Positions 9,401 through 58,929 of a stretch of DNA of 64,000 bases are shown here, piece by piece; positions within the stretch are counted from its first letter, which is position 1; every line of letters begins with the position of its first letter. Source of the stretch: Chiloscyllium plagiosum (taxonomy: Eukaryota); contig NC_057746.1 in assembly GCF_004010195.1 (NCBI RefSeq), forward strand, positions 26,125,523 to 26,189,522, written 5' to 3'. The translations under genes and the position numbers were made by a program. The notes beneath the pieces were generated by a model. That model saw only the letters and a program-made list of their open reading frames with translations, ran no database searches and had not been told where the DNA came from.

Positions 9401-12400
9401 CAGACGCTGTGGTGGATTTGAATCTATGTTGTCAGAACATGTGCTCAGGCCTCAGGATGACTAGGGATGGGCACAGCAATTCAGACAGCATCCGAGGACA
9501 GGCAAAATCGACGTTTCGGGCAAAAGCCCTTCATCAGGAAGGGCTTTTGCCCGAAACGTCGATTTTGCCTGTCCTCGGATGCTGCCTGAATTGCTGTGCT
9601 CTTCCAGCACCACTGATCCAGAATCTGGTTTCCAGCATCTGCATTGTTTTTACCTCAGGATGACTACACCAGTGACTTCACTACCACTCTACTGTCTACA
9701 TTGGGATGAGGAACAAGTGGAATTAAGTTCAGATGTATATTTCAGATTTATCAGCTGCTACGGTGGAAGTTGACCTCATAATCCAGAGGCATTAGCTTGG
9801 ACCTCCCCAGCGATGTTGCCCTTGTGCCACCATCACCACCTGCTGCCATTTACAGAGATTTTGTTCCGCCCCCGAACGCAAAGGTTCACTTACGATCCGA
9901 TCATTGATGACTGTAGTCAACGCACTCTGCTCTCCTCGTAGACTGTAGAGGTTCAGCGCTAAGCACTCAAACAGAGCCTGATTACACAGCTCCAGAAGTC
10001 GGTGACCAAAACTAGCGTCTGTGGGAAGAGAGAGACATCAGAGAGGACACAAAGCCAGGTCAGGTGTGACAAAGAGGGCAAGAGCAAACAAACGAAGGAG
10101 TCACTGAACGAGCAAAGAGTTTCTCTCCTGCTCCCTGACAGCTCAGTGGGTCAAATCCAACGGTATTGGCTGATCTCAACCAACTGGCCTCAGAAACCCC
10201 TGCAGTTTGCAGGCGTGAGGAAAACTTTACGGGATTTCTGCCCCCATTAATCATCCCTGGACTTCCAAGGAACCGGCAGTTGCATCACCCTGGGGAGGAT
10301 GAGATGAGGTTTGTGAATCGGGTGAAACAATCGCGCAGACCCCAACCCACACTCGACCGACAATCCCGGAGCGACTCAAGCTCCTGTGTGAACTGAAGGC
10401 CAGCAGAAAGCTAGTGTAGTGGAGAGGAAGGAGCAAGAGATGGAAGTAGAGAAGGGTCAGCAAAAGAGAACAAATAAACAAGGACAGCAGCAAGACAAGC
10501 ACACAGTACCCGTGCACTGGAGAATGTGTGTAGCAATCCGATTGAACTGCTCCCTCAAGAATTCCAAATTTGTACTGGTGATGTCTACTTCATCTCGCAC
10601 AACCACAGACGCCTCGAGAGAAAACAAACAACATTAGCAAGCAGCACCGCTTTATATCAGGCAATTTATTACCATCAAAATCAGCTCTCTATCAGGCCCC
10701 AGGCAATTCATAGAACATAAAACATTACAGCGCAGTACAGGCCCTTCGGCCCTCGATGTTGCGCCAACCTGTGGAACCAATCTGAAGCCTATCTGTCCTA
10801 CACGATTCCATGCTCATCCATATGCCTATCCAATGGCCATTTAAATGCCCTTAAAGTTAGTGAGTCTATTACTGTTGCAGGCAGTGTGTCCCACGCCCCT
10901 ACTACTCTCTGAGTAAAGAACCTACCTCTGACATCTTTCTATATCTATCAACCCTCAATTTAAAGCTATGCCCCCTCATGATAGCCATCACTATCCGAGG
11001 AGAAAGGCTCTCACTGTCCACTCAATCTAACCCTCTGATTATCTTAAATGTCTCAATTAAGTCACACCTCAATTTTCTTCTCTCTAACAAAAACAGCCTC
11101 AAGTCCCTCAGTCTTTTTTCCATACCAGGTAACATAGAAGTAAATCTCCTCTGAATCCTTTCCAAATCTTCCACATCCTTCCTATAATGCAGTGACCAGA
11201 ACTGTACGTAATACTCCAAGTGTGGCCACACCAGAGTTTTGTACAGCTGCAGCATGACCTCGTGGTTCCAAAACTCAATCCCTCTACTAATAAAAGCTAA
11301 CACACAGTATGCCTTCTTAACAACCCTATCAACCTGGGTGGCAACTTTCAGGGATCTATGTGCACGGACACAGAAATCCCTCTACTCATCTACATGACCA
11401 AGAATCTTACCACTAACCCAGTATTGCTATTGCTCCTTCCAAGTGAAACGTCTCACACTTTTCCACATTAAACTCCATTCGCCACCTCTCAGCCCAGCTC
11501 TGCGGCTTATCTATATTGCTCTGTAAACTACAACATCCTTCAGCACCACCACAACTGTACCGCCTTTAGTGTCATCTGCAAATTTACTAACCCATCCTGC
11601 TACGCCCTCATCCAGGTCACTTATGAAAATGACAAACAGCAGTGGCCCCAAAACAGACCCTTGCAGTACACCACTAGTAACTGAACTCCAGGATGAACGT
11701 TTCCCATCAACCACCACTGTCTTCTTTCTTTTTTCATAAAGGGTGAGGACAGTTGGAATGCACCCCAGGCCAGGGCATCTCTCTCGTGTCTGCTTCCACT
11801 CTGCTCTGTACCAGCTCAGCACCAACTGCTGGGCATGCAACTTGCTGCCAACTGCCTCATTCCCATTACAGAAGCAAAGCTTTAACAGCCCGAGAGCTCA
11901 GGATGCCAGTTTGCTCACTGAGCTGGAAGGGTTGTTTTCAGACGGTTCCTCACCATGCTCGGTAACATTATCAGTGAGCCTCTGGTGAAGCGCTGGTGTT
12001 ATGTCCCACTTTATACATGTGTGTCGTGGTCTCAGAAAGCAGGACGTAACACCAGCGCTTCACCAGAGGCTCACTGATGACGTTAACTAGCATTGTGGCA
12101 AAATGTCTGAAAACAAACCTTCCAGCTCAGCGAGCAAACTTGCAACCTGAACCTCAACCTCAGCTACAAACCTGCAAGCCTCAAGAGCCGCGGATGGACC
12201 GAAGACCTGGGACAACGACTCATGAGCACTGGTCTGAAGGAGATCACATTTCTTGTTGGCATGGCAAGGTGGTACAGGACCAGAGGGGAATCTACGGCTA
12301 TCTTATGACAAGTCCAGTTATGATCGGGAAATAGTCAGAGAACAAAGAAAATTTACAACCCAGGAACAGGCCCTTCGGCCCTCCAAGCCTGAGCCGATCT

Positions 12401-18400: not shown

Positions 18401-21400
18401 CCTCTTATATCTTTCCCCCCCTTCACCCTAAACCTATGCCCTTTAGTTCCAGACTCCCCCATCCCACGAAAATTACTTTGTCTATTTATCGTATACATGC
18501 CCCTCAATTTTGAGAGAGATAGGGTCTCGGGAGCCAATTTGTCTTTTCAAGACCACAGAGAGTTTACTGAAGTGCCCCACGCCTGTCACAGCCTTCATCC
18601 GGCGGAAGACAACCGCGGAGGGACTGGTAGGCGATGCCCGAGTGGTATTCTCAATGGATCCAGGTCATGCTCAGGCTTGAATCCCGCCACGGCAGATGGT
18701 GGAATTTGTTTATTCAGGGAGGGAAGTTGCCATCTTTACTTCGTCTGGCCAATATGTGACTCCGGACCCGCAGCAATATGGTTGACTCTCGGCTGATCAC
18801 CAGGCGATTATAAATGGGCAATAAATACTGGGACACTCTCATCCCATGAATGATTTTTTTAAAAAAACTTCCTAACACGTCAGTTCAGAAGCAGACATCA
18901 GCCTCAGACTGAAAAATTGCTTTAACCCCTCCTTTCGGGATAATAACCACTCCCACCTGACTGCCAGCACAGAATCGGTAGCTCCTTAATAAATGACTTT
19001 GAAAGCACCAGTACTCAAGCATTTGGTTAAGCTGCAAACGCCAAACCCTACTCTTAGAGAGTCAGTCAGTCAGAGACAGGGAGACATCACTAAATCCTGC
19101 AGAATGAGCTCACAAATCGACCTGTCTTGCCAAGATCCAGCATCTCTCATGGCTTACGTGATCACACAAAACACCACACGGTGTAGAATTCACAGGCCAT
19201 TCATCCCGACAGGTTCGTGCTAGCCTTTTATCTCAGTGTCTTCGCCAGGCCCTGTCAACATACCCACTCTGCGGCATTTCCACAGAGGCCACCCAGCTAC
19301 TTGCTCTTGTGCTGTGTTCAGTCAGGGATGTTACAAAGGGGAGGAAGCACTGTTACAGCGGCAACATCGAGCTGAACGCTTCATCTGAAGGGCAGCACGT
19401 TCAGTGATGCCGTTTCCTCTCAGAACCGCACCGAAACACAGAGCTCAGCTCCAGAGGGTGGGAGTGTACCGACAGACTTACTGGAGCTGACACCTGGATT
19501 GTGAAGTGACAGTAAAGAGCGGAGAGCGCAGAGCAAAAAGGGGCACCATGAGCCAGTCAGACACTTACCAAAGACGACGGGCTGCATCAGAAGTTGCCCT
19601 ACCAGTCCGGTGATCATCTGAGCAAGAGTGGCAGGACCGGGGGTGGGACCGGGACCAGGGCCGGGGCCAGTGCCAGGATCAGGGGCAGGGGTAGAGCCAG
19701 GAGGAACCTGGAGTGAAAAGAGCAGGCACAGAAAATGAACTGCACGCTTACAAAGAAGGCACTTGAACTACAAAAGTAAACTTAAACATAGCCATGCCCG
19801 GAGCTGCTTATTTGAGCAGCAAACAGTCCTGGGAACACTGGGCAGCACAGTGGCTGCCTCACAGCACCAGGGTCCCAGGTTCGATTCCAACCTCGGGCGA
19901 CTGTCTGTGTGGAGTTTGCACATTCTCCCAGCGTCTGTGTGGGTTTCCTCCGGGTGCTCCGGTTTCCTCCCACAGTCCAAAGATGTGCAAGACAGGTGAA
20001 TTGGCCATGCTAAATTGCCCATAGTGTTAGGTGCATTAGTCAGAGGGAAATGGGTCTGGGTGGGTTACTCTTCGGAGGATCGGTGTGGACTGGTTGGGCC
20101 GAAGGGTCTGTTTCCACACTGTAAGGATGTCTAATCTAATCTAATCTAAAATCCTCTCAGCTCGGACACCATCTTGTATGCTTTCACAGCCTGCCAGCTG
20201 TTTCCCCACTCCTTACACCTGAGGCTTGACAGAGGTTGCTGCACAGCACCACAGCAAGTGAGGTAAGAGTGCAAGAATGTCACTGTGACCCACGATATTA
20301 TATGAAATTTGACACCAGCCCCGAAAGTCCTTTTATTTTGCTACATCCTCAATAAAACAAAATGGTTTAATAGGTGTACAGTTCTGGTCGCTCTGCTATA
20401 GGAAGGATACTATTAGATTGGAGAAGGCGCAGAATAGATTTACAAGGATGTTACTGAGACTGGAGTCTTTGAGTTAGAGAGAGGGGCTGGATAGGCTTTT
20501 TTACCCAGGAGCGCAGGGAGACTGAGGGCTGACCTTGTAGAGGACCATAAAATCATGAGGGGCATGAATAACGTGAATTTCATGGTCTTTTCTCTTGGGA
20601 AGGGGAATTCAAAACTGGAGGGCATATTCTTAGGATGAAAGGACTAAGATTTAAGAAAAAAGAGACCTGAGGGGCAACTTTTTCACAGAGAGGATAGCTC
20701 GCATGTGGAATGAGTTGCCAGAGGAAGTGGTAGGTGCAGGCACAGTTACAACATTTAAAAGACATTTGGACAGGTACATGAATAGGAAAGGTTTAGAGGG
20801 ATACGCATGCAAGGGGGGGCCTCGTTTGGTTTGGGAAACTTGATCCGCATGGACTAGTTGGACTGAAGTGCCTGTGTGCCTCTATCCGCAGTAACAGAGT
20901 GATTTTACCACATCCCTCATACTGCGATCTATCTCTCATGAGTTACCTGTGGGCCAGGTTGTGGTCCTGATGCTGACTGGGTCTGCCGTGGGGGAGGGGG
21001 TGGAGGCCGGGTAATCACCACTCGGGCAGGTGAAGGCTGAAACCCAGGAACCTGCTGCCCTGCTGGAGAAGGGGCAGAAGAAAAGATGGAATGAAACACT
21101 GAGAGAAGAACATGTACGCTGCCTCACGTGTAACACTGATCACCTTCAGAAAAGCTTCTCAAATGGTAACCTCTCCCAGCCCCACTCCACCCTGGTCTGC
21201 AATCAGATTAGGCCACCAGTCGGCTGTGCCTGCCACATAAGCTACTGTCAAACGCTCGTGGAATTAAAGAATAAAAAATTATCAGGAAGTAATTAATTCA
21301 TTATATGGAACTGGGACCAACTTCCTTTTACAGGACTGCCTTATGTGGGTCAGTTCTTGCTGACACTGAAATAAAGCCAAAAACGCTGGAAACTCTCAGC

Positions 21401-24400: not shown

Positions 24401-27400
24401 CAAACAGGCAATGTTAAGGCAGCACATATCAACCATGGGAAACAAGATGAGCTAATAACAAAAAAAATGTCCATCAAAAACACATTGCAATAAACAACAA
24501 AAGAAATCAAAAATGAGGCAGTAACTTGAAGAAATGTAGGACAGCATTACATTAAAAGACTTGGAAGATCTCAATGCTGCAAAGGAAGGATTTGCAGGTT
24601 TAAAATTTAGGAAAGGGTTCCCTGCAAAAAATGATTAAAAGAATATGGAATGGGAATAAATCAGCCGAGAATCTAAAAATACATAAGACTTTTTGTCAGC
24701 AGAAGTAGATTAGCTGAAGTAAATGTTAACCTCATAGATGACTGGAGAAGTTACATACAAAACCTAAATATTGCAAATGCTGGAAATCTGAGATTATAAA
24801 CAGAAAGTGCTGAAAATATTCAGCAGGTCCATCAGTCCTAAAAGCAAAACGTCATCAACCGGAAATCATGAATACTTTTTGTCTTTGCACAGATCTCTCC
24901 GAACCTGCTACTCATTTCCATTACTTTCCGTTTTAATTTCACTTGATACGTTCCTGGGACAAGGGAATTCTTTTTTTGCTGCCTCTCAGACCCCTGGAAT
25001 CCGTGAAGGGCAGTGGCTTTCAGAAGCAGAGGCCATTCACCGACACACTGAGCGGGATTTCCAGCATAAGTGGATTCTACTCTGACCTATGTGACAGGCG
25101 AGTTGAGTGATACGGCTGAGGCAACTGACCGGGTGCACAAGACGATCCACAAACATGATAGGCATGTTTCTAGTCATTGTCAGCTGTCTAAGACACTCCT
25201 CCTTCCAAACCCTCAAACTGACCGAGAAAAAAACAATTACTTCACAATGATCATGCAACTGTTTCCTAGCCCATTATAAAGGATTGCGAAATGTGTACTG
25301 ATTCAAGCTTCTTTCCCACACACTCGCTCGACAGAGCCCTGGGGCTACCTGCATTAACCGTTCACAGTGCAGTCTAATGCACCCATTCTGTATTCACGAG
25401 ACTCTTTCCAGTGACAAAGACATTTGGCCTAATATGCATGTGCTTGTTCTTTAAGAGAGCAACTGACCCCAATTTCCCAGCAAAGTTTCCCTTCATGCAC
25501 ATGTCCAATTGCCTTTTGAAAACTACTTTAGAATCTAATTTAATCAATCCCTCAGGTTCCGTTTCAGATCTCGTGTGATTAGAAATGTCTCTGCATTTCA
25601 CTTCTAATCATTTTAAATCTACGACTCCCCTGCATGCAGAAAAAACTGCTTTGCCTGATTTTATCAAAATCCCTCATAGTTATGGTTATCACTTCTTGAT
25701 CTGCCCTCAACCGTCTCTAGTCTCTCCATTCTCTCCAGAGAACTAAATTCTCCAGTCACAGGTATTGTCCTGGTAAATGTGCTATTCTCAGGGCCTTGCC
25801 TTCCTTCCCAGAATTAGGTCCACACGTCAGTTTAAGCCCAACCAGAGAACTGCAAGGTTTACTATGATTTCCTTGCAATTCTGCTCAATGCCCCACTTAC
25901 AAAATCAAGTACCACGTTTGAGTTGAGAAAAGCGTTCTGTCACCATACCTGAGCCCGCGCTAGCTGCTGCCATAGCCTGCTGGGTAATCTGGTGCATGAT
26001 GGTCTGCATGAATTCAGGTGTTATTCCCGGGACCTGAATGTGAGGCATGGCACCTGAATAAGAAACAGTAGTGGTTATACGCAGATGCAACATTTGCACA
26101 TCAGCAAACAATGCAGACAGATCTGCAGGGCGTCGTTTAACTTGTAAAACGATTATCACACAACACTTGAAATGAGGTAGGAGAAAGTGAGGACTGCAGA
26201 TGCTGGAGATCAGAGCTGAAAATGTGTTGCTGGAAAAGCGCAGCAGGTCAGGCAGCATCCAAGGAGCAGGAGAATCGACGTTTCGGGCATGAGCCCTTCT
26301 TCAGGATTCCTGAAGAATGGCTCATGCCCGAAACGTCGATTCTCCTGCTCCTTGGATGCAACTTGAAATGAGGTACCAGGACACATGAAGAAAAGCTGGG
26401 TCAAAGAAATAAGTAGCATTTTAAAAGGGGAGTGCGTGGTTGTGAGGGGTCTAGAGTTCAGAACGTGCCGGCCCCAGGAAGGCCAAGGCAAGACCCACGT
26501 TAAACAGGCTCTTCAGTCCAACTTGTCTGTGCTGACTAGATATCTCAAATTAATCTAGTCCCATTTGCCAACATTTGGCCCATATCCCTCTAAACCCTTC
26601 CTATTCATGTACCCATTCAGATGCCTTTTAAATGCTATAATTGTACCAGCCTCACCACCTCCACTAGTAGCTCATTCCATAAGCGCACCACCCTCTGCGT
26701 GAACAAGATGCCCACTGGTCCTTTTTTAAATCTTTCCCTTCTCACCCTACACCTATGCCCTCTAGTTCTGGACTCCCCCACCCCAGAGAAAAGACCTTGT
26801 CTATTTATCCTATCCATGCCCCTCAATTTTATAAACCTCTATAAGGTCACCCCTCAGCCTCCGACACTCCAGGGAAAACAGGCCCAGCCTATTCAGCCTC
26901 TCTCTTACAGCTCAAACCCTCCAACCCTGGCGACATCCTGGTCAATCTTTTCTGAATCCTTTCAAGTTTCACAACATCTTTTCTATAGCAGGGAGACCAG
27001 AACTGAACACAGTATGTGGTGCTGAGATTAAAATCTAGGATGCCAGAGGGTCAGAATTGGGAGGTTTGTTTTGGGGTGGGTGGGCAGGCAGTGACATTGA
27101 AAGCTTGGGATAGGTTTGGGGAATGATGAAATTAAGCTTAAATTCAGTAAGCAAGACACATTTAAAGAGGTGAGAGGAAGACTCTGGGTTCAAGGTTTGT
27201 GTAAAGATTTGTCACTCGGATGCTGGTTGCAGCAGTTGTAGTTCTGTTCACCAACCTGGGAGGTTGATTTGCAGACATTTCATCCCCTGTCTAGGTGACA
27301 TCCTCTGTGCTTTGGAGCCTCTGGTGAAGCACTGCTGTACTGTCTCTTCTGGAATGTATTTGGTTCCGTTTCTGCTGCTTCCGTTTGCTCGTTGTACTGA

Positions 27401-30400
27401 CCGGTGTACTGGGTCTAGATCTGTGTGTCTCAATGCATAGACCCAAATATACCGGCCACTACAACGAACAACCAGGACTGGCAATCGGAAACAGCAGGAA
27501 CAGAACCACATACATTCCAGAAGGGACAGTACAGCAGCGCTTCATAGAAGGCTCCAAAGCACAGAGGATGTCATCTGGATAGGGTACAAAATGTCGGCAA
27601 ATCAACCTCCCAGCTTGGTGAACATAACCCACAACTACGATAAGACTCTGAACGTGATGATAATTAGCCATCTGAATTTTGAGTTGAGGAGTGGGTGCAG
27701 TGGCAATTACTCAATTCGCCCTTCTCTGTCAGAGGGATCCTTATAATTGTTATTTTGGCGTGACGGAGGAAGGGGCAGAATTATTTTAAAAGAGCTTAGA
27801 CCTACTTTCCACACAGGCGAAAAAAAAAGGCTTTTCTCGCTTATTTCTAATGCCTATACAGAAATTTTTTGTAAAGGTTAAGGTTGAATAAGGGCTGAGG
27901 TCATTTATCAGTTTTATTGCGATTTTTTTAAAAAAAATTCTTTCATGGGATGTGGGTGTTTCTGGGGAGGCTTCCATGTGAAATGGACCTGGAGAAGGTG
28001 GTGGTGATTTGCCTTGTACCCCTGCAGTTCTCAGGGTGCAGGTATACCCACAGTGTTATTTGCCAGGGATTTCCAGGATTTTCAACCATATATACTGTCC
28101 GAAGAGCGATATTTATACAAATTGGAACGTATGCTGATTTGAAAAGGTACTATGTTGCTACGTTCTGCTATCTTTGTCATTTTAGCTGGTAGAGGTCACT
28201 GGTTTGAAAGGTACCAACTTGATGAAGTTGCTGCAATGCATTTTATGTATGTGCACACTACTGCCATTATGTGGTGTGGTAGAGGACAATGAATGCTGAA
28301 GGTGGTAAGACAGGATGCTGACCCAACAGATTTTCCATTGATGACGGTGAATGATGAGCAGTGCTTCACCCGGAGGCCCACTGAAGATGTTGCCTAGTAG
28401 GGTGACGAAACTTCTGGAAATGAACCTTCCAGCTCAGCGAGCAAACCTCAACCTGAGCAAACATCCAGAACCTCAACCTGAGCTACAAATCTTCTCAAAA
28501 CTCACTGAACTTCTTCAGTTTTGTTGGAGCTGTGCTCACCCAGGCAAGCAGGCAGTATGCCAGCCTTGATGGCCAGGTTTTTATGGAGATAGGGTGGTCA
28601 GTTATTTTCTGCCCAACTCCCAGCCTCTGGCTGGCTCGTACAGTCAGTACTGATAACGCATGCGCGATTAAGTTTCTCACCAATGGTAACCCACAACCCC
28701 ATCTCAAGATGTTGAAGATATTGGACTTAGTGACGATAATTTCACTGTTAAAGAAAGATGTCAGTGTCAGGTTAGAGAGCAATTGTCTGGCAGTCGTGCA
28801 GCACAAATTTTACTAATTAGCAAACACATTTCCTCCTCAACCTTACGGAAGACTGGAGAGAAGGCCCATCAATGAATCAGCTGAAAGTGTGCATTAACCA
28901 GAGACTTGGGAGGTGTTTAATAGAATCTCTGAACAGGTTGATTAGAAAATATCTATTCTAAGGAATTCTTGCAATAATGCCCTGGGGCCAAGATGACAGA
29001 TCTCCACAACCATTTTCCTCTGCACTTCTTCCGATTGCCTTCAGTTTTGCTGAGCTTTCTGATGCCACACACGGTCAAACTTTGTCTCAACAAGGACAAG
29101 TCGTCACCCAGTGAATTCAGCTCTTTTGTCCATTTGTGAACCTAGGCTGCCATAACTCTTGGAGCCCAATGCCCTCAGTGTGAGTCAAACTGCTTAATGG
29201 TAAGCAGGTTTGTCCTATTTAAATGCTGCTCATTAACGTAGTCAGTTACACCTTCCATTACTTTTCTGATGATTGAGAACAAAATTAATCCAGATTAGAT
29301 TTGTTCATTGCTTGTGGAGAGGACACACCTGGGAAATTTTCCACACTGTCAGGCAGGCGTCCATTTTGTAGCCATACTGGAACAGTAGTGAATATTATAA
29401 GAAAACAATAAAAAGAATTCAGATGAAGTGGATAATTTTGTTTTTTTCTTCTTCTTTTCAGTTGCCAAATTCAAGGAGCGAAGACTAACATTCAAAAAGG
29501 TGCTGACAGGGAAGAATGAATAAACTCCACTGCATCTCAAATTGGATCATCAGTGCAGATAGCAATAGAAGGTGTTGACTGAGCGGAATTAGTGCCTGAC
29601 GGCAGGACTCAAGTTACACTTCCAATGCAGCTGCAGCCAACAGTGGTTTCTGAGAAAGGAACAAGATCAGAAGACAGAGACCCAACCCAAACAGCATTGA
29701 GGACATACAGTTTCAATTGTGCACTCCAGGAAAAGGCAACAGATTCAACAAAATATCAAGAAAGGAAGATTCTGTAAAATACAATACTTTTGAGATTAGA
29801 CATCATAGGATATTAACAGCAGCAAAAGCAAAGTGCAGGATTTTTCCTTTTGAAAAGAAGTAACTGCACTCAGTTCGGCATCAAAGTTCACACAGCCAGT
29901 TTCAATTTCAGAGACATTGGTACAGCCTCCTTTGAGAGGCGCAGATATCCTAGGGACAGGGAAAACAAAACAGTGAACAAGTATTTCACCTCAAATTCAG
30001 ATGTCTGTGATATCCTGTCTTATTAGCGACAGAACTTCTCGACACAAAATGTCTTAGTAGATACATACCCACTGAAACTCTACCAGAGGTAGTGCATGGT
30101 GAATACAGTCAACTTTGTCTCAAAGACAAGAATTTGCAAATAGTACTTAATTATCAAAAGTATTGAGGCACTGAGTTTACCTTCAACTTAGAAAGAGTCT
30201 TTATAGAAAACATTGGTACAACTTTCGCCTCAGTTGCTGACAGACATATTTTCAGTCTGCAGTACATGCCTCTAGTTTTATCCAATGCTTTTGGGGAAGT
30301 GGAATGAATGCTTTATGGTGGTGCTGCTGCACTAGCTAGGCACTTACCTGGGCCAGAATTTCCTGTTGTTGATGAAGCAGTTGCAGAAGCATTCCCTGGT

Positions 30401-33400
30401 GTAGCAGAATCTACGCAGTGAGAGAAAAAAAAAACACCTTTTGGAACACATTATGATACAGCTGTGTGCTATGATGGTTTCATGGTTAATACTTTTTTTG
30501 TGAACTCAAAGATTGTAGAGGCCTAGATTTCTTTATTTTTAAAAAAAGAGATCCAACGAAAGGGAAAACATATGACTAATTTTGTGACTGGGGTTTGCAT
30601 CTGTTTTGTTTGACTTGTGTTTTGCAGGCTTGGAGATAGTTTTGAGTTCAATCGAGAGAAGCCTATTACAGAATAAGCTGTCCATTACTCCTGGTTCTGA
30701 AACAACTTGATGGTTAATTCAGCGCAAAACCCGACTGACCGCTTGAAGAGCAAGCGACTGACAAGAGTTCAGTCTGACTGATGTGATTCCTGAGCAAGCG
30801 GCATCTGCCAAGCTGCCAGAGACAATTGCCCATGTTTGGTGACATGTTACAGAACATCATACCAACATTTTGAATCTTAGCAGTTCTTGATAGCAGAAAC
30901 CCCTGTTGGCCATGGGTGTTTTCACCCCTACAAAATGAATCTCTGCAACACATTTTTACTTTTGTCTGGTGTGCGCGCGCATGTGCAAGAGAGAGGTTAG
31001 AAAGGTAAATATTTTTACTTTCATATTACAAACTAAGGATGTTAATCAATTTTACAGTCTCATTGAATAAATTGTTTTTAAAAAAATCAATAATTTTGAT
31101 TTTATTAAAGAATTGGATGTCTGGATGGATTTTTTGTATTCTAAGTTTAATGTAGAGAAAGTGTATGGCTGTTTTAACCAGTTGCCCTTATGACCAGTTA
31201 AATGTATAGTAGTGGGACTATATAAAGGCAATGCACTGTGATGTGAGATAATGTTAAGTGAATGAGAAACACTCGTGCCAATTGTGTCTCATGGGGAGCA
31301 GGTGGGGGGGGGGGGGAAGAGAGAGAGAACTCCTTTAACTTAGACATCAGGACATCAAGGGATCGTCAATACCACAATGGGGGCAAGAGTTAAATAACAT
31401 CTCACTCATGCATATCCCTCAAGTCCTAGACAAAAGCAACTAGAAATCCAGTACGGACATCTTCTTGCCATCACAGCCCGACCATACCTCCTTGAAGATT
31501 CATCTGCATCATGACAACGGGCTCCATGGTTTGATGTGTAATGCGGATGACCCGGGGATGTGGAGTCTGGGTCTGAGCCTGGGAGCCCTGAGTCTCCGGC
31601 GCTTCCCGTGACTCCGGGCCCTGTGGCTGGGCAGCAGGAGTGGCATTGGCAGTGGGGGAGGCCGCTGCCTGACCCTCAGCCGTGTGCTGTGTCCGGTTGC
31701 CGTTGGTCGTCATGGTGACTGTCGTTCCAACATTGATCTGCTGAAATGGCGAGAAATTGCTATTTTAGTATCCGGGAGGTGGGACATGCACATACGGTGG
31801 CAAGGTTTTAGGCTATGTACACGCTTTGAAAGAGATCCACCACTGACAGAAGCATTCCCCTTGTCCCGCACCAGTGGCTGGGCATGCTACTTTAACCCTT
31901 ACCTTCAGGTAAAATGTTGGCCACTTGTATCCGAGACACGAAAGAATATCTTTAGCCAAGAGGGCTCAGAATTGTTGGAATTCTCTGCAGAGAGGCAACT
32001 GCTGCTTGCGACGCTTTCCAACAGTGGTTGTAAATGACGGGAGAGCTCACAGACCAAGATGCTTCCAAGACCCATCACTGACAGACTCACCTGCACTCCT
32101 GCATACCCGAAGAGCCAGTGTGCAGTAACTCACCTGAATGGGCACAGCCTGCTGCAGCACTACAGGTGAAGCGTAATGGGACATAGGCCTCACCACATGC
32201 AGGTGACGGGGAGTGTTAGCTGCCAAGTTGCACCTGAGGTCAGACAGAGCCACGAAGGTGTTGCCCAAGAAACGAAGGGCTTCGCCGACAAGGTTGATGA
32301 TCCTCTGGTCTTCTTCTCTGCCTTCAGTCTGTTGGAAGGGCGGGTCAGAAAGGAAGGTTACGAGAAATATCGCACAACACACATTCATCTGATTTCTCCC
32401 AGTGCCCAGTTTGCGTTTCTAATTCTTCTGAAAGATGCTGACCATGCTGGAGGTGGTACAATTCCATGCAGAAGCAATTGTCATTTACATCCCAGCCCAG
32501 GTGAGTATACTTCAAATATGAGCCTAGACAGTAAGTCAGGCTTACACGATTTCAGGCGATTTAAATCCAAATACAGCATTTTTAATTCCCAACCACTTAA
32601 AGCAGGCTGGGGATTCCATGTCGCACTGCTAAGGGTTGTGATGCGATATCAGCTTGTGCTTCTGTACAATAGGCTACATGGGGCATTTATACAGTCAACT
32701 GATGCAACTCACCACTGACCATTCCCAGACAGCCTGGAGTCAAACAAAAACAGGAAGTGCTGGAGGAACTCAGCAGGTGTGGTAGCGTCTGTGAAGAGAA
32801 CTTCATCAGAATTGGAGGGTTGCTGACCTTGAAATGTTAACTCTGTCTCTCTCCTCCGATGCTGCCAGACCCGAGTTCCTCCAGCATTTTCTGTTTTTGT
32901 TTAAGATTACCAGCATCATTTCTGCCTACGTACAAATTCAGCAACACAGCAGAGGGGAAGGCACACTGCAGGAGGAGCAGAATTTGTTTCCAGCCACTTA
33001 ATGGTTTTGTGAAAGCTACTTTCATTGGAATGCAGCAGGTTAAGGGACAGTTTCAATGAGGTCTTTAGGATTTTGCTTAACATAGGGTTGTTGAAAAGGG
33101 AACATTTCCTGCAGGCGGGGGATAGCCAGGACAGGACTACATTATCTTCAGTGCTCAATATCATGATGGGTCTGGACAGAGTAGATAGAGAGGAATAGTT
33201 CCTACTGGCAGAAGGGTCAGGAAATAAAAGTCACCAGCTTAAGGCAATTAGCTTAAGAAACAACAGTGACACAAGGAAAATCTTTTAACAAGTGATTAGG
33301 ATATGGAACGCCTTGAGGGTGGGGTAGAGGTGGATTCAATGCAAAAGAAAATGGGCTAATAATGTACAGAGGGAAAATTGACAGCTTTACTAGGAAAGGG

Positions 33401-36400
33401 CGGAACAGTGGAAATCAGGTGGGTTCCTCTTCCACAGAGCTGGCATAGACACAATGAGCCAAATGGCTGTAAATGCAAAATCAAGAGACTGGTTCAAAAG
33501 TCAGGAAACGTTTCGCTACATCAAGGATAGATGAAACGTCTCACAATGAAGCACGAGCTGCTAACTCAACTAAGAACTTTTAACTCAAGAACAGATTTCT
33601 GATAGCCTGGGAAACGGAGCCGAGGCAGGTGTATGGAAGCTGAGCACAAGAATGACAGTGAATAACACAATAGACAGACTGTCAACCAATGCCACCACCC
33701 CCCCATCCTCAGATGCCTTGGTTCCCTCATGGTCCAAGAGTTTATTGATCTCAGTTTTAAATGCACCAAGCGTTCACACAACTCCGTGGGATGGGTAATT
33801 CCAAAGATTCGCCACTGAAGAAATTGTTCTCTGGCCTAAATGGCACTTATCCTGAGGTAAAGTTTGGAAGTTGGACACCTTTCACCAGCGGAACGGGAAA
33901 CACAAACACAAGCGCGCGCACACGGACACACACAGACACACACACACAAAACTTGGTGGCATACGTTGTTGTTGTAATCCGCGGTCGTGGCCGTGCTCAG
34001 GATCTCTTGGTACCGCTGAACAAATGGTTGCAGTCTCGCTTCTACCCTCTGGAGCTCAGTCAGAACCTCGAGGTACTCTGTGGGGGATGGGTGGCTGTGA
34101 AAGAGAGAGCAAGGAGTCAAAAACAAAATCTATGTAAGTTCTGAATGATGAACTGGCCGTTTTACCAGCTTGACTTCTCGCTGCATTTCCTGGTTTCCTC
34201 TTTCTGAAAGAAAAACCCTTCACCATTCAAATGGTCTACTGCCATATCCTTTCCATCCTACTCATTCATTAATTATTTCCTTTCAGATTAATATGTTCTA
34301 TTCTTAACCCAAAGTTCATACCTTTCAATTTGTGGCCACTAGGATTTGAACAATTGAACCAGTAATCAACTTATTTTCTGACTGAACAGATTGTAGTTTA
34401 GATTATAATACTTAGCACTTTTGCCTCTGAGTCACAAGGGGTCCAGATCCCACAGTAGGACGCAAGCACTAAAATCAACTTTTGACAGCCTAACGCAGTA
34501 CTGAGGAAATGCTGCACTGCTGAAGTGCCATCTTTACAGTTAAATCAGGTGCGAGATCAAGGTCCCATTGTCTGCTCAGGTGGATGCAGAAGATTCCTTG
34601 GCGCAATTTCAATGGAAGACAGGGAAGCCAGCCCCAGTGACCAATACTGATCCCTCAATCAACATCACAAAAGCCAACTGATATCTAGTTATTGTCACAT
34701 TGCTGCTTAAGAGCTTGCTGAGTGAAAACCGGCTGCTGTATCTTCAACAGTGACTAAACTGATAAGTACTTAATTAGCTGTAAAGGTCATCCAATGGTCA
34801 CGAACAAATGCCAAGTGGATGCTACAGTCTTCTTTACTCACCTCTAAATTTCGCTCTTTGTAAACATTACTTTTTTAGAAGAAATTCAATTGTAGTCTTT
34901 TGATAGAATATGCTCGAAGCATTACTGACGATAATAAATTTTCACAAAACATTTCACCTTGTGCTCATTCTGGGTGTACGTTTGCTCGCTGAGCTGGAAG
35001 GTTTGTTTTCAGACGTTTCATTACCACACGAGGTAACATCTTCAGTCCTTCATCCGGAGGCTCACTGATGATGTTACCTAGTACGGTGACGAAATGTCTG
35101 AAAACGAACCTTCCAGCTCAGCGAGCAAACCTACATCCAGAACCTCAACCTGCGCTACAAACCTTCTCAAAACTCGCTATCTCGTACTCATCCAGAGTAT
35201 TCACCTGAAATACCAAAGTAAAAAGGGGAAAGGACTGATTGTTTAGCAAGTGACATCGACTGGTAGACGTACTATCTTGGAAAATGTTGCAGTTAGAACA
35301 TGACTGATAGTTAACTACCAAACTTCGTTTAAATGATAAACCAAGCAGGTCGACTGATTAGCCAAGGCACTGCCTTGAGAAATTAAGCAGAGCATGGCTG
35401 TCACCACTTTGTTGAGTTGAAACAGGCACTACATGTGCATGACCTTTCTGTCCACAAAGAACAGGACCGCGCCTATTCCCCCAAATGTCCAGCAAGTAAC
35501 TGCATATCCCCTTCAGCTGCTCTCCAACTGGCCTGTCCTTTCAAAATTCACAATGCAGCGCATTAGATACTGGATATTACACATACCAGACGTGTACCCG
35601 TGGTTGGAACACCATTTGCTAAATAACCCTGTGTGAAGACTTATGCTGACTACTGACGGTGGATGGTCAGTCATGCTTGCAGTTGTGTGTACTTAAAAGT
35701 TACTTATAACAATACACAGGGTATTGTTCTTTTCAGACAGAAAGAATATGTAAACTCAGTTGCATCAAACCACAAAAGAAAAACCACTAAGAATGCATAA
35801 ACCACACTGAGTGTCATGATTCCAGGTGGCGACTCACCAACACCATCTTCTCAAAAGGCAATTTAGGAACAGACAAAAAATGGTGTCTGAGTGAAATAAA
35901 ACGCGACTGAGGCGGCCATGAGCAGGCACACAAGGGGTGGCCCCAGCTAACCTACTACGAAACCCCGGTGACCCCAGAACTTTGCTCAGAAAGAGCTCTA
36001 GCAAGCAATTCACTTAACCATGTTATTCTCAACATCCAGCAAGAAAAATTCACTGATTTTTCTTTTCAAAAATCAAATGCAACCACAAAAGACTTAGGAA
36101 ATGAAAAGCACAGGAAGGAAGCAGATTTGTTGTACATTCGCCTTACCATTAGCAATGGGCAGAGTTTTCCTGCCCTGTTGGAAACACCAGGCAGAGACCA
36201 CCTCCTCTGCTTTTTTTTTTTCAAGCCATCTGATCACTGGCGAGAGTTTAGAGTCACCAGAACATTTCACACTTGTATGGTAAATACTGGTTAAAAAACA
36301 AACAGCCATCTACTATAGCTCAGTCATAATGAAAGACCCCATAATAGAGGCAGCATGGCAACTGTACAGGAAACACCACCACCAGAACATTTCACACTTG

Positions 36401-39400
36401 TATGGTAAATACTGGTTAAAAAACAGCCATCTACTATAGCTCAGTCATAATGAAAGACCCCATAATAGAGGCAGCATGGCAACTGTACAGTAAACACCAC
36501 CTTGGTTTTAGCCTGCAATACCCTACTCAGAGTGCAGCTACGTATGTATGAACAAGATGCTTTGACAGTTATTCTAACTTTGATGTTTTTGATGTTCATG
36601 TTTGTAGTTGGTGGGTACAATTCTGATTTTGTTTATATTTAACTGAAATCTAACCTGTAAAATGCTATAGTTCCCTGCCTTAGTGGAAGAGCAGTTGAGT
36701 TTAATTAAAGCAGCCCCAACCAGTTTCCCACTAAATGGACCATTCACGTTAGGAGCAAATAAAACTAGCTAGTTTAGATTAGATTCCCTAGAGTGTGGAA
36801 ACAGGCCCTTCGGCCCAACCAGTCCACATTGACCCTCCAAAGAGCAACCCACCCAGACCCATTTCCCTCTGACTGATGGACCTAACTCTATGGGCAATTT
36901 AGCATGGCCAATTCACCTTGACCTGCACATCTTTGGACTGTGGGAGGAAACCGGAGCACCCGGAGGAAACCCACGCAGACACAGGGAGAGCATGCAAACA
37001 CCACACAGACAGGCACCCAAGGCTGGAATTGAACCTGGGACCCTGGTGTTGTGAGGCAGCAGTGCTAACCACTGAGCAGTTTAGTGCAACAGAGCACTTA
37101 AAATAAAAGGGCTCAGTGGTAGAGTACTGGGTTAGAAAGCCTGGATTCAAATTCACCCTCTCCAGGGGCATGTCATAACATATCTAACTGGTTTGGTGTC
37201 AAAATATCTGCCATAGAATGAGGAATTAGATATTTAAGCAAGTTAGAGGAAAAAAAAGTACAAAAACAGAAATTGCGAGAGAACCTCAGCAGGTCTGGCA
37301 GCATCTGTGGGAAAGAAAAGCATAATTGACAACTTGAATCTGGTGACTCTTCATCAGAACCAGGTGAAGAGTCACTGGACTCCACACATGAATCAACCTT
37401 AACACTAAATTAAGCAGAACTTCAAAGGTCACAATCCCTGCACTGTTACCAGAGTCATGCACAAATTGACATCGCGCAGATCAGTTTACAGACACCAATG
37501 CGTGGCTCTAAGAATGGTTTGAGAGAAGTGGGTTCTGGTTCTTGAAGCAGTAGCACCAACGCTGGGAAAAATGGGATCTTCGTTTATCAAATGTTCTCCA
37601 CCTACATTTACTGAATTGTTACTCACGTTAACTCTACAACTAGGCAAGTAGAGAAGATTTCACCCATAACACTAAGGACAAGGGATCAAATTTGGGAAAT
37701 GAATATAAGAATAGAGTCAATACCAAGGAGAAAAGTACTAATGTGGGAAATGATAAACAGACTGTGATAGGAAGCGATACGAACAGATAAGACTTAAATT
37801 TACCAAAAAGAGCAAAATGATAAAACTAAGATCCCGACACCTGAATGCACATGCCATTTAAAACAAAGTCAGACGTCATACGACACCAGGTTATAGCCCA
37901 ACAGGTTTACTTAAAATCACAAACTTTTGAAGCGTAGCCCGATGAAGGGACTATGCTCCGAAAGCTTGTGATTTTAAATAAGACTGTTAGACTATAACCT
38001 GGTGTTCTGTGACTTCTGACATGACTCAACCCAGTCCAACACCAGCACTTCCACATCATTAAAAACAAAACAGATGAACTGAATCAGCAAACAGAAATAT
38101 GTACATATATTCTGGTACCTACAGAGACATGGATGCAGGATGACATGGATTGGGACTTGAATCTTGAAGGGTGCGTTTCATTTATAAACGACAGAAAAGT
38201 AGGAAATGGTGGAGGGGTGGTTCTGTTAACTAATTACAGTGTTACTACTATAGACAGGGACGTGGAAACAGTTTGGGTAGAAACGATAAAGTCAAGAAGT
38301 CACTTGGAGGGCTGCATAGCTGTCCACCCAAACCTACAGTAATGGTTTCTATGTATATTTTAAAGAGAAAAGAGCTAACAGAGTGACCATGGATTTTATA
38401 GAAATTGAGTCTAGTGAATTTGAAATGGAAAATAAATGGCGGTTATTTTGCATTGGCCTTCACTTTACAGGTAACAGAAGCATTGATAATGGAAGGGAGG
38501 AACTCAAGAAAATTACAATCAATAGAGACGTGGCACTGAGTAAACTGTTTGGAGCTACCAGCAGACACATACCCCAGTCCTGGCTAACTTCATCCCAAGG
38601 TCTAAGAGTGCCCAATGAGATTGTTACTAAATTGGTTTTAATTATCTTGAACTCTCTTGATTCAGGATTGAATTGGTTAGTATACAAATAGAGTACAGGT
38701 TGCTCTGGTATAATGCGCATTTCGTTAACACAAATTGGCTATAATGCAATTGATGAATTGTGGGCGCTGTTTGAATAATGCGAACTTTCGACCGAATGGG
38801 TACAGCAATTTCTGTAGAAATCTTCTACAGCGTGAAGTTGCAGAGGAACGCAACTGCCGCGTTATAGCAGAACGTACTGTAATTAAAAACACTAACAAAA
38901 TGCTACCATTCTTTGTGAAGGGAATACAAGAGAAGGGAGGTTCAGTTTCAATTATACAAAGCACTGACGAGATCACATCAGTTGGAGTTTAGGAGAGTAG
39001 GAGGCACTCGATTGAAAAAACAAGGTCCTGAGTGGTCTTGACAGGGTTGATATACAGAAGATGTCTCCTCTTATGATGGGAATCTAGAACCAGAGATTAC
39101 TGCTTAGAAATCAGGCATCACCTATTTAAAACAGAGATGAGATGAATCTTAATCCGCCAGAAGTGTTTATAACATGTCACCAGAAAGGGTGGTGGAAGCA
39201 GAATCATTGAATATTTTCAGGACAGATTCCTGTTAAGATGGGGAGGTTGTGTGAATGAAAGGCTACCATTGATGGGCAGGAAAGCAGATTTGACGTGACA
39301 ATCACCCCAGTCGTGATCTGAGCGAATGGCGGAGCAGACTTGAGAAGCTCAATGACCAAGCCCTGCATGTTCCCACACCGGTTCAAACAGCACCCCCTGT

Positions 39401-42400: not shown

Positions 42401-45400
42401 CAGTGTCAGATCACTCCAAGCAACTGGCTGAAAAGCAGCAACTATGTAATCTTGAGGCTGATGGCACTGAACTCCAGCTTTTGACCCTGGAAGAATCATG
42501 ATCCAGAAATGAAATGAAGCTTTCAGCCAATCTAACAACAGAGATAATTATTTCTAGAACAAAGTGAGGACTGCTGATGCTGGAGATCAGAGTCGAGTGT
42601 GCGTTGCTGGGAAAGCACAGGTCAGGCAGCATCTGATGAGGAGAATCGACATTTCAGGCATAAGCCCTTCTTCAGGAATGTTCAGAGCAACGGAGAGGAC
42701 TTGGTAAGGGAGGGAGGTATAGTGAGAGAGGGACTCACTGAGATCTTTGTAAGAGAGGAGGAGAACTTCTTCAAGCTCGGCATACTTGGAAGAGGATTCG
42801 CAGTAAGGTTAAAATCAACTAGGAGAAAGTGGGGACTGCAGATGCTACCATATTTCCAAAGGGACAGATTGGCCATGATCTTACTGAATGGCGTGACAAG
42901 CTTGAAAGGCCGAATGACTGACTTTTGAACGTATTTCCTGTATTCACGCAATCTAATGCAAAATAGCTTCGAGCAAACAAAATCTGAGTGTGCGTGAACG
43001 TCACTGCCTCCCCATTTGACATCAGGGAAAACATTTGTGAAACTTGCCAACTGTTTGGAGACCTGCCATTTCACGCTGGCAAGGATATAGGATTCTCTCC
43101 AGAGCACAATAAAAGCTAGTCAAAAGTCAGAAGGCAGTAGACAGCATGTTTCCTGGGTGGAAGCTCACTTCACCCATTACTTGCAGTACTCATCAGCACC
43201 TGTAAACTACAGGGAAAGTAAAAGTCAACATCTAAACTCTTAACACCTTGCATGGTGGTTTAAACTCCTTAAAATTTCTCCCATGACTCCCATCACTTCA
43301 GTGTCATGCAATCCACAGCATTCTTCCCAGGCATAAACTAAGCTTGCAGGAGTAGTATCTGTAACTACAGTGCTGTCAATGAAACTGCGCAAGCAGTTCT
43401 AGATGGAAGCTGCCTCCCTATCATGTCAGCTGGCTGTTTCCCACCTTGTACACATTATCTATCTTCAAATCTTCACCTCATCCACATGACTCCAACAATC
43501 AATTAGTGTAAATATCTTTCCTAATTGACGATTTCACCTTACTTTTATCATTCTAGATAAATGCTCTCGCTAGACTTACTAATCAGCAGAACCAATCTAT
43601 CAGTCTTCCTCCACCTAAGCACTTCGTAAGTTTGATGCCTCTATCAGATCCTATTTTACCTTGCCTTGCTCAGTGACTAAAGCCAGAGTCTGTTCAGTCC
43701 CACAACAAAAATAACCTACACATCTATCACACCTTTATGAAACTGTAAGACCCCCCCCATGGCACTTGGTAATGGCATTATGCAAAGTGTGACACTGAAT
43801 CAAGTAACAGGTTTTAGATTAGATTCCCAACAGTGTGGAAACAAGCCGTTCGGCCCAACAAGTCCACACTGACCGTCCGAAGAGTAACCCACCCGGTCCC
43901 ATTTCTGTCTGACTAATATATCTAACACCATGGGCAATTTAGCATGGCCAATTCACCTGACCTCCACAACCTTGGACTGTGGGAGGAAACCGGAGCACCC
44001 GGAGGAAACCCATGAAGACACTGGGAGAATGTGCAAACTCCACGCTGACAGTCACCTGAGGCTGGAATCAAACCTGTGTTGTTGTGTCAAATGGCTCAAC
44101 AGCTTGATCAAAGAAGTAGGCTTTAAAGAAATGTGTTTAAGTGGAGCAGCAGGGAGGGAATTCCAGAGTGGAGGATCAAGGCAACTGAAGATGCATTCAA
44201 TGAAGGAAGCCATTAAAATTGGGATGGAGGTTGGAGTTGGAGCAGCAAAGGCACTTTGGATGATTGTAGAGCTGGAGCAAATTACAGGAGAGGAGGGCGG
44301 AAACTACAAAAATCGAGGGATAAGGCCACAGAAGGGTTTAAAGCAAGGAGGAGAATTCAAAATTCAAGACAGTATTTGACCAGGACCCGATGTAGGTCAG
44401 TGAACACAAGTATGGCAGAGGAATCAGTCTTGCTGTGAGATTTGGACACCCTAAGGTTTAAGGGAAATATGTGATCATGCTGGAAGAGGTGCTGTTGCCT
44501 GGGTTGGAGCACTTTGGCTACTAAGACAGTCTGGATAGGCTTGGGTCGTTTTCTTTAGAGCAGACAAAGCTGAGGAAGGACCTGACCAAGGTGCACAAGA
44601 TTATGAGGGACATGGACACGGTAGATCAGAAGCAGTTGTTCCCCTTGAGATCAATAACAAGGGAACATCATTTCCAGGTGAAGGACAGGAGGTTAAAAAA
44701 AGACTTGAGAAAAAAAAATTGTTTCACCCAGAGTACGGTGGGAATCTGTGACACACTGACTGGGAAGGTAGTAGAGGCAGGAAACCTCGCAATATTTATC
44801 AAGTACGTGGATGAGCAGGTAAAGTGTCATACCATTCAAGACTATGGGCCAAGAGCTGGAAATGGGTTTAGTGTAGATAGATCGGTGCCGACCTGATGAG
44901 TTAAAGGGCCACCTCCGTGCTTTATGTCAGAATGTTGGAGCCGAGTGTGCATGGAAAAATCAAATCTAAGTGGTAAAAAGAGGCCTGAACAACGGTTTCA
45001 ACAGTAATGAGCTAAACCAGGCAAAGTTAGACTGGGAATAAGTGAACGTAGAGATGTGGCAAGGGAGACTGGGAAGCTCAGATGTGAGACCAATATTGCC
45101 AACACTGACTCAGTCTCAGGGAGAAGGATGGGAACGGTTACTATAGGGAACAGGGAGGGGAAGGAAACTAGTGGCTTCAGCCTTCCTCAACTTAATTAAT
45201 GGAGATGTCTGAATATACAAGTACTGATAATTTATCAACAGTGGAAGTGGCAAGGGAGGCGGTGGTGATGTAAAGCTTGGTGTTGACAGAGCATGTGAAA
45301 TCTTAGGCAGCATTCTGTCAGCTGAACCACAAGCCTTTCATCGCTCCTATAAATCCTAATAAATCTGTTGTGTCATAGCTCCAATATCCTGTGTGCAATA

Positions 45401-56325: not shown

Positions 56326-56494
56326 AGGAGAAAGTGAGGACTGCAGATCAGAGCTGAAAATGTGTTGCTGGAAAAGCACAGCAGGTCAGGCAGCATCCAA
56401 GGAACAGGAGGATCGAAGGGCTTATGCCCGAAACGTCGATTCTCCTGCTCCTTGGATGCTGCCTGACCTTTTCCAGCAACACATTTTCAGCTCT
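56326..56494. mobile_element. Penelope-like fold-back relic with 15-bp TSD, centre deleted
   Basis: TSD tattcagatacttta at 56311-56325 and 56495-56509; same family as the 26180 copy; retains GGGC-ttat-GCCC GAAACGTC but not CTGANGA. Confidence 0.78.
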
Positions 56495-58929
56495 TATTCA
56501 GATACTTTACAAATGGATTCTTGAGAATGAATTATAGACTGGGTTTTAATAAAGGAATTTGCCTTACATATTGAGTAATGACTATCTGGCACAAATCTGC
56601 AGTCAAGAGTTCAGATAATACAAACAAGCAAACTTATGCCAAGTGCCGAGTTGTCGACTGTTAACAAGATTAAGATTCTGCCTTGAAATTGCTTCAGAAT
56701 GTCTCTCTCTCTCTCTCTCTGGCAAATGCAGAATGTGCAGATTGAGATCTTTTACTTTTGGCTGGATTCTATGCTGGCGGTAGCTGTTATTCTTGGCAAC
56801 CTTCTAATCCATTTAATGTGACACAGTGGCGCCGGGCCAGTTCACCTGGGGATTAACTGCAGTTAATTGAAAATTGTGTGGCCCCAATAAGAAGTGGGGA
56901 AAGTATGCAGGATGTATATCTTAAAATCTGCCGTCCATGGGTTCTCATCTCCCCACCTCTCCTTGTGAATCTGTTAGCTGGCTGCAGGATTAGTATTCTG
57001 TGATACTGATAGCTGACTCATAAGTAGTTGCAGACCCAGATCCCTTGCCTGTAACCACACGGCTCCCCCAGAATTGTACCCCAGAATCAATCAACTCACT
57101 CCCTTTAACCCCATCTAGAAGGGGGGCTCCCACACTAATAAAGGCATCAGCCATGCCCCAGTTGGTAGCACTCTTCCTCATGAATCACAAAGCTATGAGT
57201 TCGAGTCCCACTCAAAGGGCTGAGCTTGCATGACTGACGCTCCATTGCTGTCCTGCGCTGCACAGAGTTAAATGCAACCGTCTTTCTGGCCAAAGGTTAA
57301 ACCTGGGCCCCGATCAGCTGTTCTAATGGTGGTTTTTTAAAAAATCTCAGGACATTAATTTCAGCAAGAGCTGGGAGGTCTCCTTAGTCCCAGTCAATAT
57401 TTAACCCACTATCAACGTCACAAAATAAAATCAACCAACAATTATCACATGGCTGGTGGGAACTTCCTGTGCACAGAATGGCCATGAGATTTCACAACAA
57501 CTGTGACTACACCACATTGGCAGCAAAACATTTTGACAGGTCTAATAGTCAAAGTAAAATATTGCTTAAATACAAGCCTTTCTTTTACCTTTTCATAATT
57601 TGGTGCTTTATTACAAGGTCAATTTCCTATAGAGGCTAATAACCTACAAATTCTGGGGACAGGCTTTCCACTGATACTCATTCCAAGTCTACTAACTCCC
57701 ACAGTTACCTTAAATACACTTTCCCACATCTTGCTTCCTAATAAGAGTCTGTTCCACTTTCCCAGTTTCCCCACCACATCGGCCAGATTTCTTCCACTGG
57801 GGTTTCTAACGGGTTCTCCTTTTTACTCAAACAAAACTCCAACCCCATTTTTTTTCTTTTTTCACAGCTAACATTTACACCGGTCTTACAAATGAACTCC
57901 TCGTACAGCCAGAGAAGTCTACAGCACAGAAAAATGGCCCTGAAGCCTATCAACTCTGCAATGGTCAAAAACAAACACCTAATTGCCCGAATCCCATCTT
58001 CTGGCACTTGGACCATTTCCTTGACTGTCTTGGCGTGGCATCCTCCCTGACCTCCAGTGTCACAGCCTTTGCCTTTGGCACTGGGCACTTCAGAATCTGT
58101 TATTGCTGTTCCTCCCCTTTAGTCCACAGTATTAAAAACTACAATTTTCCACCTCCTTTTAGTTCAGAAGTCGTCATCCTGGAGTCGAAACTTTAACTCT
58201 TACATTTCTCTTCACAGATGCTGCCAGACCTGCTGAGTTCCTCCAGCACATTTTATTTGATTTATGGCTTCCAGCATCTGCAATATTTTGCTTTTATCCC
58301 TAAAATATCTTGCTGATTCATCCAAAATGGGCATCAAAGCTATCTTTCTTCATACAGCTCACTGCACATGTTTGGTGAAAAAGTGTTATCCTATTACTCC
58401 CATGTACTGGCTCTTTTTCCATTTCCCTGCAAACACTTCCCATTCAAACATACTGTCAAAAAGTCTTTAGAATTTTGCTATTCAATCTGCTTCTACCCTC
58501 CTTTCAGGCACCTTATTTCAGGTTGTAAACAAATACAAAAGAAAAAGTCTTCATTTCATGGCTGGTTCTATTTTTTAAATTCATTTTATTTTATCATAAA
58601 CAACAATGGCAAGGCAAGCATTTGTTGCTCATCCATAACTACACTCAAGAAAATGGTGGTGAGCCATCCTCCTGAATTACTACAGCTCGTGTGTTGGGAA
58701 TGAACACAGTAAAGAAATGGCCATTGTGTCCTCTGGTTACCAACCCTCTTGTCATTATTATTCTTATTGTGGGGGTGGGGCTCCATATTATCACAGTTCA
58801 AATTGCCTGTGAAGCACTTTGGTATAACCCTCAGCTCTGTGCAAGTCTCTTTTCACGTTGCTTATTTGACCAAACCCTTCATGATTTTGAACACCTCTGT
58901 TACATGCCCCCAAAGCTATTTTCAACAGC

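Follow-up and report, generated by a model that had tools for sequence, protein, structure and literature searches.

A locked hammerhead motif in a BAG6 intron of Chiloscyllium plagiosum as a probable by-product of head-to-head Penelope-like insertion

Results

A fold-back insertion upstream of a BAG6 exon

The analysed window, a stretch of 64,000 nt of the Chiloscyllium plagiosum genome, carries BAG6 on its minus strand; Pfam BAG6 matches were obtained in 2 of the 16 segments scanned (E 1e-26 and 1e-10), and the other 14 exon candidates gave none. The exon of interest is 105 nt long (25949-26053, minus strand, acceptor CAG at 26056-26054), as defined by its translation and splice joints, which occur at exactly these ends in transcript contigs and link it to exons near 30346-30412 and 20945-21062. 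In human, an alternatively spliced exon 11B of 108 nt has been described together with its primers (PMC3338477, in part). By eye, the printed 11B primers resemble the end of the 105-nt exon and the primer for the skipped form resembles the start of the next exon, a similarity in sequence from which the shark exon is likely the counterpart of human 11B.

Comparison within the window delimits a 181-bp insertion at 26180-26360, placed between exact 15-bp target-site duplications (26165-26179 and 26361-26375, plus strand) and made of two copies of one repeat end, of 127 and 52 nt, set head-to-head. The long arm (26180-26306, minus strand, sense to BAG6) is a pseudo-LTR segment of a Penelope-like element and alone carries a tail of about 35 nt (26180-26214), while the short arm (26308-26359, plus strand) is an inverted copy holding a mirror hammerhead core. 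A single extra base, 26360 (plus strand), follows the short arm and is unlike both the family's next base and the duplication. The arms meet in a palindromic junction (26305-26309, centre 26307). As the first-pass annotation had claimed, 51 of 52 positions match between 26255-26306 and the complement of 26308-26359, and the lone mismatch (26296/26318) breaks, at 26318, the conserved first pair of helix II in the plus-strand mirror core. The distance that it had put at about 125 nt, from the element to the exon acceptor, was measured at 123 nt, with the end of the hairpin 198 nt from the CAG; the 15-bp duplication, the plus-strand mirror motif and the high copy number of the repeat had been overlooked.

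An assembly artefact was ruled out by the duplication, by the one arm mismatch and by a contig from another organism that crosses the right junction (31 nt inside). The identity of a retrozyme was likewise rejected, the locus having one inverted pair only and no tandem direct units. The stretch 26180-26360 is a genuine insertion, though an ordinary one, and its kind is known.

A minimal hammerhead paired with its own mirror copy

On the minus strand, positions 26310-26271 read GGAAUC CUGAAGA A GGGC-UCAU-GCCC GAAAC GUC^GAUUCU, and both sequence and fold bear out the earlier proposal of a complete hammerhead there, with a predicted cut between 26277 and 26276. The motif has the CUGANGA, GAAA and NUH core of minimal Penelope-like hammerheads, the base between 9 and 10.1, the G10.1-C11.1 pair and the palindromic 15.2-16.2 segment. 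Helix I comprises six pairs, compared with 4-5 in the minimal type, and takes bases from the inverted arm. Its perfection is explained because the head-to-head junction supplies its 5' strand; the family's own 5' flank, matched without change at 9,842 genomic places, allows 3 of 4 helix I pairs with a U-U mismatch (by eye and by fold), and a perfect helix I native to the family was ruled out on this difference. Rfam hammerhead families gave no match within the window at the gathering score. Passages of PMC4209133 report that a single minimal motif is not cleaved and that dimers cut weakly, and the title of PMC5785218 states that such variants cleave as dimers. By its sequence, the motif corresponds to the minimal hammerhead of Penelope-like elements, a known type that depends on dimers.

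As RNA, the element is predicted to form a hairpin in which 50 pairs, interrupted by a single mismatch, close a 3-nt loop. The folding energy of the element is -112.1 kcal/mol (z = -15.0), and 0 of 200 shuffles folded equally well. Computed energies were -101.7 kcal/mol (locked state), -24.7 kcal/mol (modelled double hammerhead) and -12.9 kcal/mol (monomer fold). The catalytic core is predicted to be paired throughout, with an unpaired probability of at most 0.004 at 11 of the 12 positions tested and of 0.27 at the mismatch, which agrees with the first-pass claim that the upstream arm is transcribed first and can pair with the motif. In these models the lock is real. Both strands of every fold-back copy carry such a locked motif, whatever the insertion site, and in this inverted layout the in-cis dimer cannot form, unlike in the tandem direct units of non-LTR retrozymes.

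In about 2 in 100 of one run, 2,108 raw reads matched the element; 97% of them continue into unlike sequence and so come from other copies, and no pile of read ends was seen among the 2,108. Locus-specific raw reads were absent from the two runs searched, one sampled at that depth and the other without any matching read.

The source is a Penelope-like retroelement

Because longer copies lead upstream into remnants of reverse transcriptase (RT) and GIY-YIG domains, the source, judged by these matches, is a Penelope-like retroelement. GIY-YIG remnants were found in 3 of 3 segments (Pfam, E 5e-5 to 5e-3) and an RT remnant in 1 of 1 (E 8e-4), all four matches being below the curated cut-offs and none lying in the BAG6 copy itself. 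A C-x4-C-x2-C linker is visible by eye in the translations of three copies (L046, L043 and L024), of the Neptune type, the clade marked by a CX2-5CxxC linker between RT and endonuclease according to part of PMC8557442. The other hallmarks of insertions by endonuclease-positive (EN+) Penelope-like elements are also found: the order RT, GIY-YIG, terminal repeat in longer copies, inverted ends with a junction palindrome, a one-sided tail (127 vs about 92 nt) and a target duplication.

No intact full-length element was recovered among the copies examined. Two candidates were rejected, L046 consisting of separate insertions and L120 being a composite. In L017, L019, L022, L025, L045, L093 and L095, runs of N start about 170-500 bp upstream of the motif; past these runs, L022 and L025 each contain an inverted copy. 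Among L100-L119, copies extending past the tail frequently break off some 130-140 nt later and then join another copy, which hints at a third preferred RNA end.

Thousands of junctions with a regular geometry

Exact pattern counts over the 3.56-Gb genome, with control patterns at 0, placed the 30-nt core at 7,322 sites and the 29-nt junction of the BAG6 copy at 1,380 (control 0), while junctions with an apex of 0-8 nt between the arms numbered 4,002. An even junction, expected where two complete cDNA ends meet and predicted before the search, was present at 696 places. The 42-mer that holds the whole motif and the junction is letter-identical at 140 places, and the long arm shows 1 difference to five other genomic copies. 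Among 29 distinct loci, the first found by the core alone and read by eye, an inverted arm stood at most 600 bp upstream in 15, native or native-like sequence in 9 (at least two of which are longer fold-backs), and 5 started at the core. Copies without inversion also end at about 90-96 or 127 nt.

Fifty siblings were typed, the first 50 listed of the 1,380 junction loci and all on one contig (C1). Exactly one arm reached at least 117 nt in 50/50, and this arm carried the 35-nt tail; two long or two short arms occurred in 0/50 (9e-16 if independent). The other arm measured 86-101 nt in 35 siblings, less than 86 in 12, and 103-109 in 3, the last likely by alignment overshoot. Arm ends cluster at 90-99 and 125-127 nt, and the end point of the BAG6 long arm is shared by 44 of the 50. 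The tailed arm lay on either side of the A/T apex in a 25:25 ratio, and a target duplication of 11-18 bp was present in 41 siblings. Subfamily variants are nearly always common to both arms (position 33 is the same in 46/46, where 25% would be expected to differ), while in siblings L001 and L006 the arms differ at two diagnostic sites.

When the first 50 of the 4,002 junctions were counted by eye, the apex was odd in 18, even in 6 and 7-nt in 7. Several of these apices hold short local copies, which at joints are a sign of microhomology end-joining.

As for the motif itself, it is equally complete in 24/50 sibling loci, and the first 52 arm pairs contain 0-1 mismatches in 24/50. Given the divergence of the intron, the probability of at most one change in 179 nt is 0.25; by this sequence measure the BAG6 copy is no more conserved than its siblings and its conservation is unremarkable.

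Related repeats in the window

The window holds at least five further related stretches. A fold-back of a related subfamily (9464-9652, with a 14-bp duplication at 9450-9463/9653-9666) retains an intact BAG6-strand motif (9537-9510) and sits between two segments that we take to be BAG6 exons. Another fold-back, of the same family (56326-56494, 15-bp duplication), has lost its apex by deletion and with it a complete core. A partial tandem without an inverted arm (42561-42846), also of this family, carries a BAG6-strand motif at 42675-42648. Hammerhead-like motifs with a longer helix II belong to a second repeat family (34990-35120 and 28381-28414), the former stretch being a fold-back with one motif per strand. 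The terminal repeat of the BAG6 insertion also has older and more distant relatives in the window, at 37273-37375 and 58217-58282.

Splicing of the exon and age of the insertion

Transcript contigs from each of the four runs contain the 105-nt exon. Its upstream joint was found in 4/4 runs (three organisms) and its downstream joint in 3/4, in transcript-like contigs, and single contigs of 2,663 and 3,266 nt span all three exons. No exon-skipping joint occurs among the 15 joints listed of a set with 31 more, in contigs of a kind that drop rare isoforms. A 740-nt contig of run X1 continues past the exon donor as far as 25654 (25654-25948) and then shows 19 unplaced letters; a GC donor could exist near 25654, and either intron retention or an alternative donor would fit. 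The same run differs at donor position +6 (25943).

In one run of a second organism, in which the intron is about 3% divergent, one contig crosses the right junction and another reaches 20 nt into the left end. The insertion therefore predates the split from this organism.

Discussion

A proposed route to head-to-head stubs

The 26180-26360 element is very probably a protein-less Penelope-like insertion, with two hammerhead-bearing ends placed head-to-head between target duplications; its hairpin would likely be a by-product of insertion that keeps a monomer-inactive motif silent, with little effect on BAG6. Mechanistically, the element's enzyme would nick both target strands about 15 bp apart, and each nick would prime one cDNA, the two beginning at different internal start sites that lie 35 nt from one another; at the BAG6 copy the second cDNA would have begun further in, at 52. 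Both cDNAs would extend to the 5' end of the RNA, just before the hammerhead core, where the native sequence would fit an initiator consensus. The two cDNA ends would then be joined via 1-2 nt of microhomology, and in the pre-mRNA the arms would zip up and depart with the intron. A single RNA copied twice is suggested because the arms nearly always share subfamily variants; such double copying is possible if the enzyme lacks RNase H.

We lean, with modest confidence, towards the hypothesis that the stubs record double priming, in which one enzyme dimer would use both nicked strands, one RNA and one start site per strand and the ends would be joined head-to-head. Double priming is favoured over self-priming because every typed sibling has exactly one tailed arm and this arm falls equally on either side of the apex. 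The hypothesis is in line with PMC11167929, which reports that a Penelope-like enzyme nicks and extends both strands and that the tail is delimited by two internal start sites, and which predicts a dimer. For the Penelope-like class, PMC8557442 describes a one-sided tail of 30-40 bp, inverted ends and a target duplication. The published proposal for inverted Penelope insertions is self-priming (PMC3846280, in part), that is, the fold-back of one template or one cDNA would form the junction in place of two primings. The palindrome at the junction speaks for it, and its best argument is the concordance of the arms, which share subfamily and some private variants. A copied arm, however, cannot exceed the length of its template, yet the tailed arm occurs on both sides of an asymmetric apex; the commonest apex would need a loop of 1 nt, and short ends near 92 nt are present in copies without inversion. 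We consider self-priming rather unlikely. Double priming, if true, would explain at one stroke why the stubs have an inverted repeat, a tail on one side and a target duplication, and would replace the self-priming idea. A limited literature search, covering few subscription papers, found neither a shark case nor a twin-priming model in print.

What the lock may mean

The fold-back had been proposed as a safety catch that lets a self-cleaving motif persist in a sense intron. A catch tied to BAG6 or exon 11B is not supported: the hairpin is a routine product of the family, with the lock on both strands everywhere and a BAG6 copy conserved to the same degree as its siblings. No lock is required because the single minimal motif is reported not to cut (PMC4209133). 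Most likely, the locked ribozyme is what copying of the element ordinarily leaves behind, with no catch built for BAG6.

A weaker form of the idea would have fold-backs survive in sense introns as a passive filter, the arm blocking dimer cleavage and unpaired sense copies being purged, again with no design for BAG6. The energy of the lock, far outweighing that of the modelled double hammerhead, and the six-pair helix I given by the junction are consistent with such a filter, as is the depletion of Xenopus retrozymes in introns after normalisation; yet part of the same preprint places 42-44% of retrozyme copies in introns (bioRxiv 10.64898/2026.07.22.740005). An unpaired sense copy with an intact core stands on the BAG6 strand at 42675-42648, although decay has turned the first pair of its helix II into G-U, and monomers are reported to be inactive and dimers weak. 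We regard this filter as improbable.

Far less credible is co-option, in which this copy would serve exon 11B as a structural switch or regulated ribozyme that editing or a helicase opens. The BAG6-strand motif is intact, the single change having struck the core of the other strand, the insertion is common to a second organism, and the human exon is alternatively spliced. However, the motif is equally complete in nearly half of the siblings, opening would not free it from the need for a partner molecule, 198 nt separate the hairpin from the acceptor, and the contigs across all three exons come without a skipping joint among those listed. A co-opted intronic hammerhead is expected to be single-copy, with conservation above background; here the 42-mer is repeated through the genome and conservation is unremarkable. 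The hairpin had also been suggested as an ADAR or Drosha substrate. As an incidental dsRNA, the 50-bp hairpin may be edited by ADAR, which acts on long duplexes, or cut into small RNAs like thousands of its siblings, without a selected role. The near-perfect duplex favours this, as do small RNAs from Penelope copies in rotifer (PMC3846280, in part), and we hold it to be a realistic possibility, somewhat short of probable; it is compatible with the explanation as an insertion by-product and no substitute for it.

Relation to known systems

The closest insertion is the rotifer Pen2a_Av (passages of PMC3846280; scheme in PMC8557442), which shares the head-to-head inverted ends, the junction palindrome, a one-sided tail of 30-40 nt and a target duplication. 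The BAG6 copy differs in having no reading frame between the ends and a 15-bp duplication, compared with 8-10 bp in the rotifer, and the shark family in its thousands of copies with an apex fixed within a few bases. The motif resembles the minimal type I hammerheads described in parts of PMC4209133 in its core, the extra base before helix II, the G-C first pair, the palindromic two-pair helix III without a loop and its terminal-repeat location, whereas its 4-pair helix II, a helix I perfect only via the junction and sequestration by its own antisense copy set it apart. Like the shark family, the Poseidon element PAc of Anolis has two start sites 3' of the hammerhead that define the tail; the shark family, however, has a Neptune-type Cys linker, and the main text of PMC11167929 does not tie double-strand priming to inverted insertions.

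Non-LTR retrozymes, as presented in sections of bioRxiv 10.64898/2026.07.22.740005, are likewise short, non-coding and Penelope-derived with a type I hammerhead, but are defined by tandem direct units, whereas the BAG6 copy is inverted. Conserved intronic hammerheads of amniotes are in general single-copy, deeply conserved and active as monomers, whereas the BAG6 copy is a high-copy minimal motif. What the amniote ribozymes (mentioned in PMC6765202) share with it is the placement of the motif on the sense strand of an intron.

Implications

Control of exon 11B by this copy, if real, would make it a rare case of a co-opted antisense-gated ribozyme; none of the findings suggests such control. 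Its weight for BAG6 is probably none, as one of several such stubs in the introns of the gene. Only the junction statistics carry some news value: junctions this precise, in their thousands, constitute a testable record of Penelope-like integration, a step called unresolved in the portions of the literature consulted. For the shark, the stubs load pre-mRNAs with hairpins of 50-95 bp, whose editing and processing could be measured.
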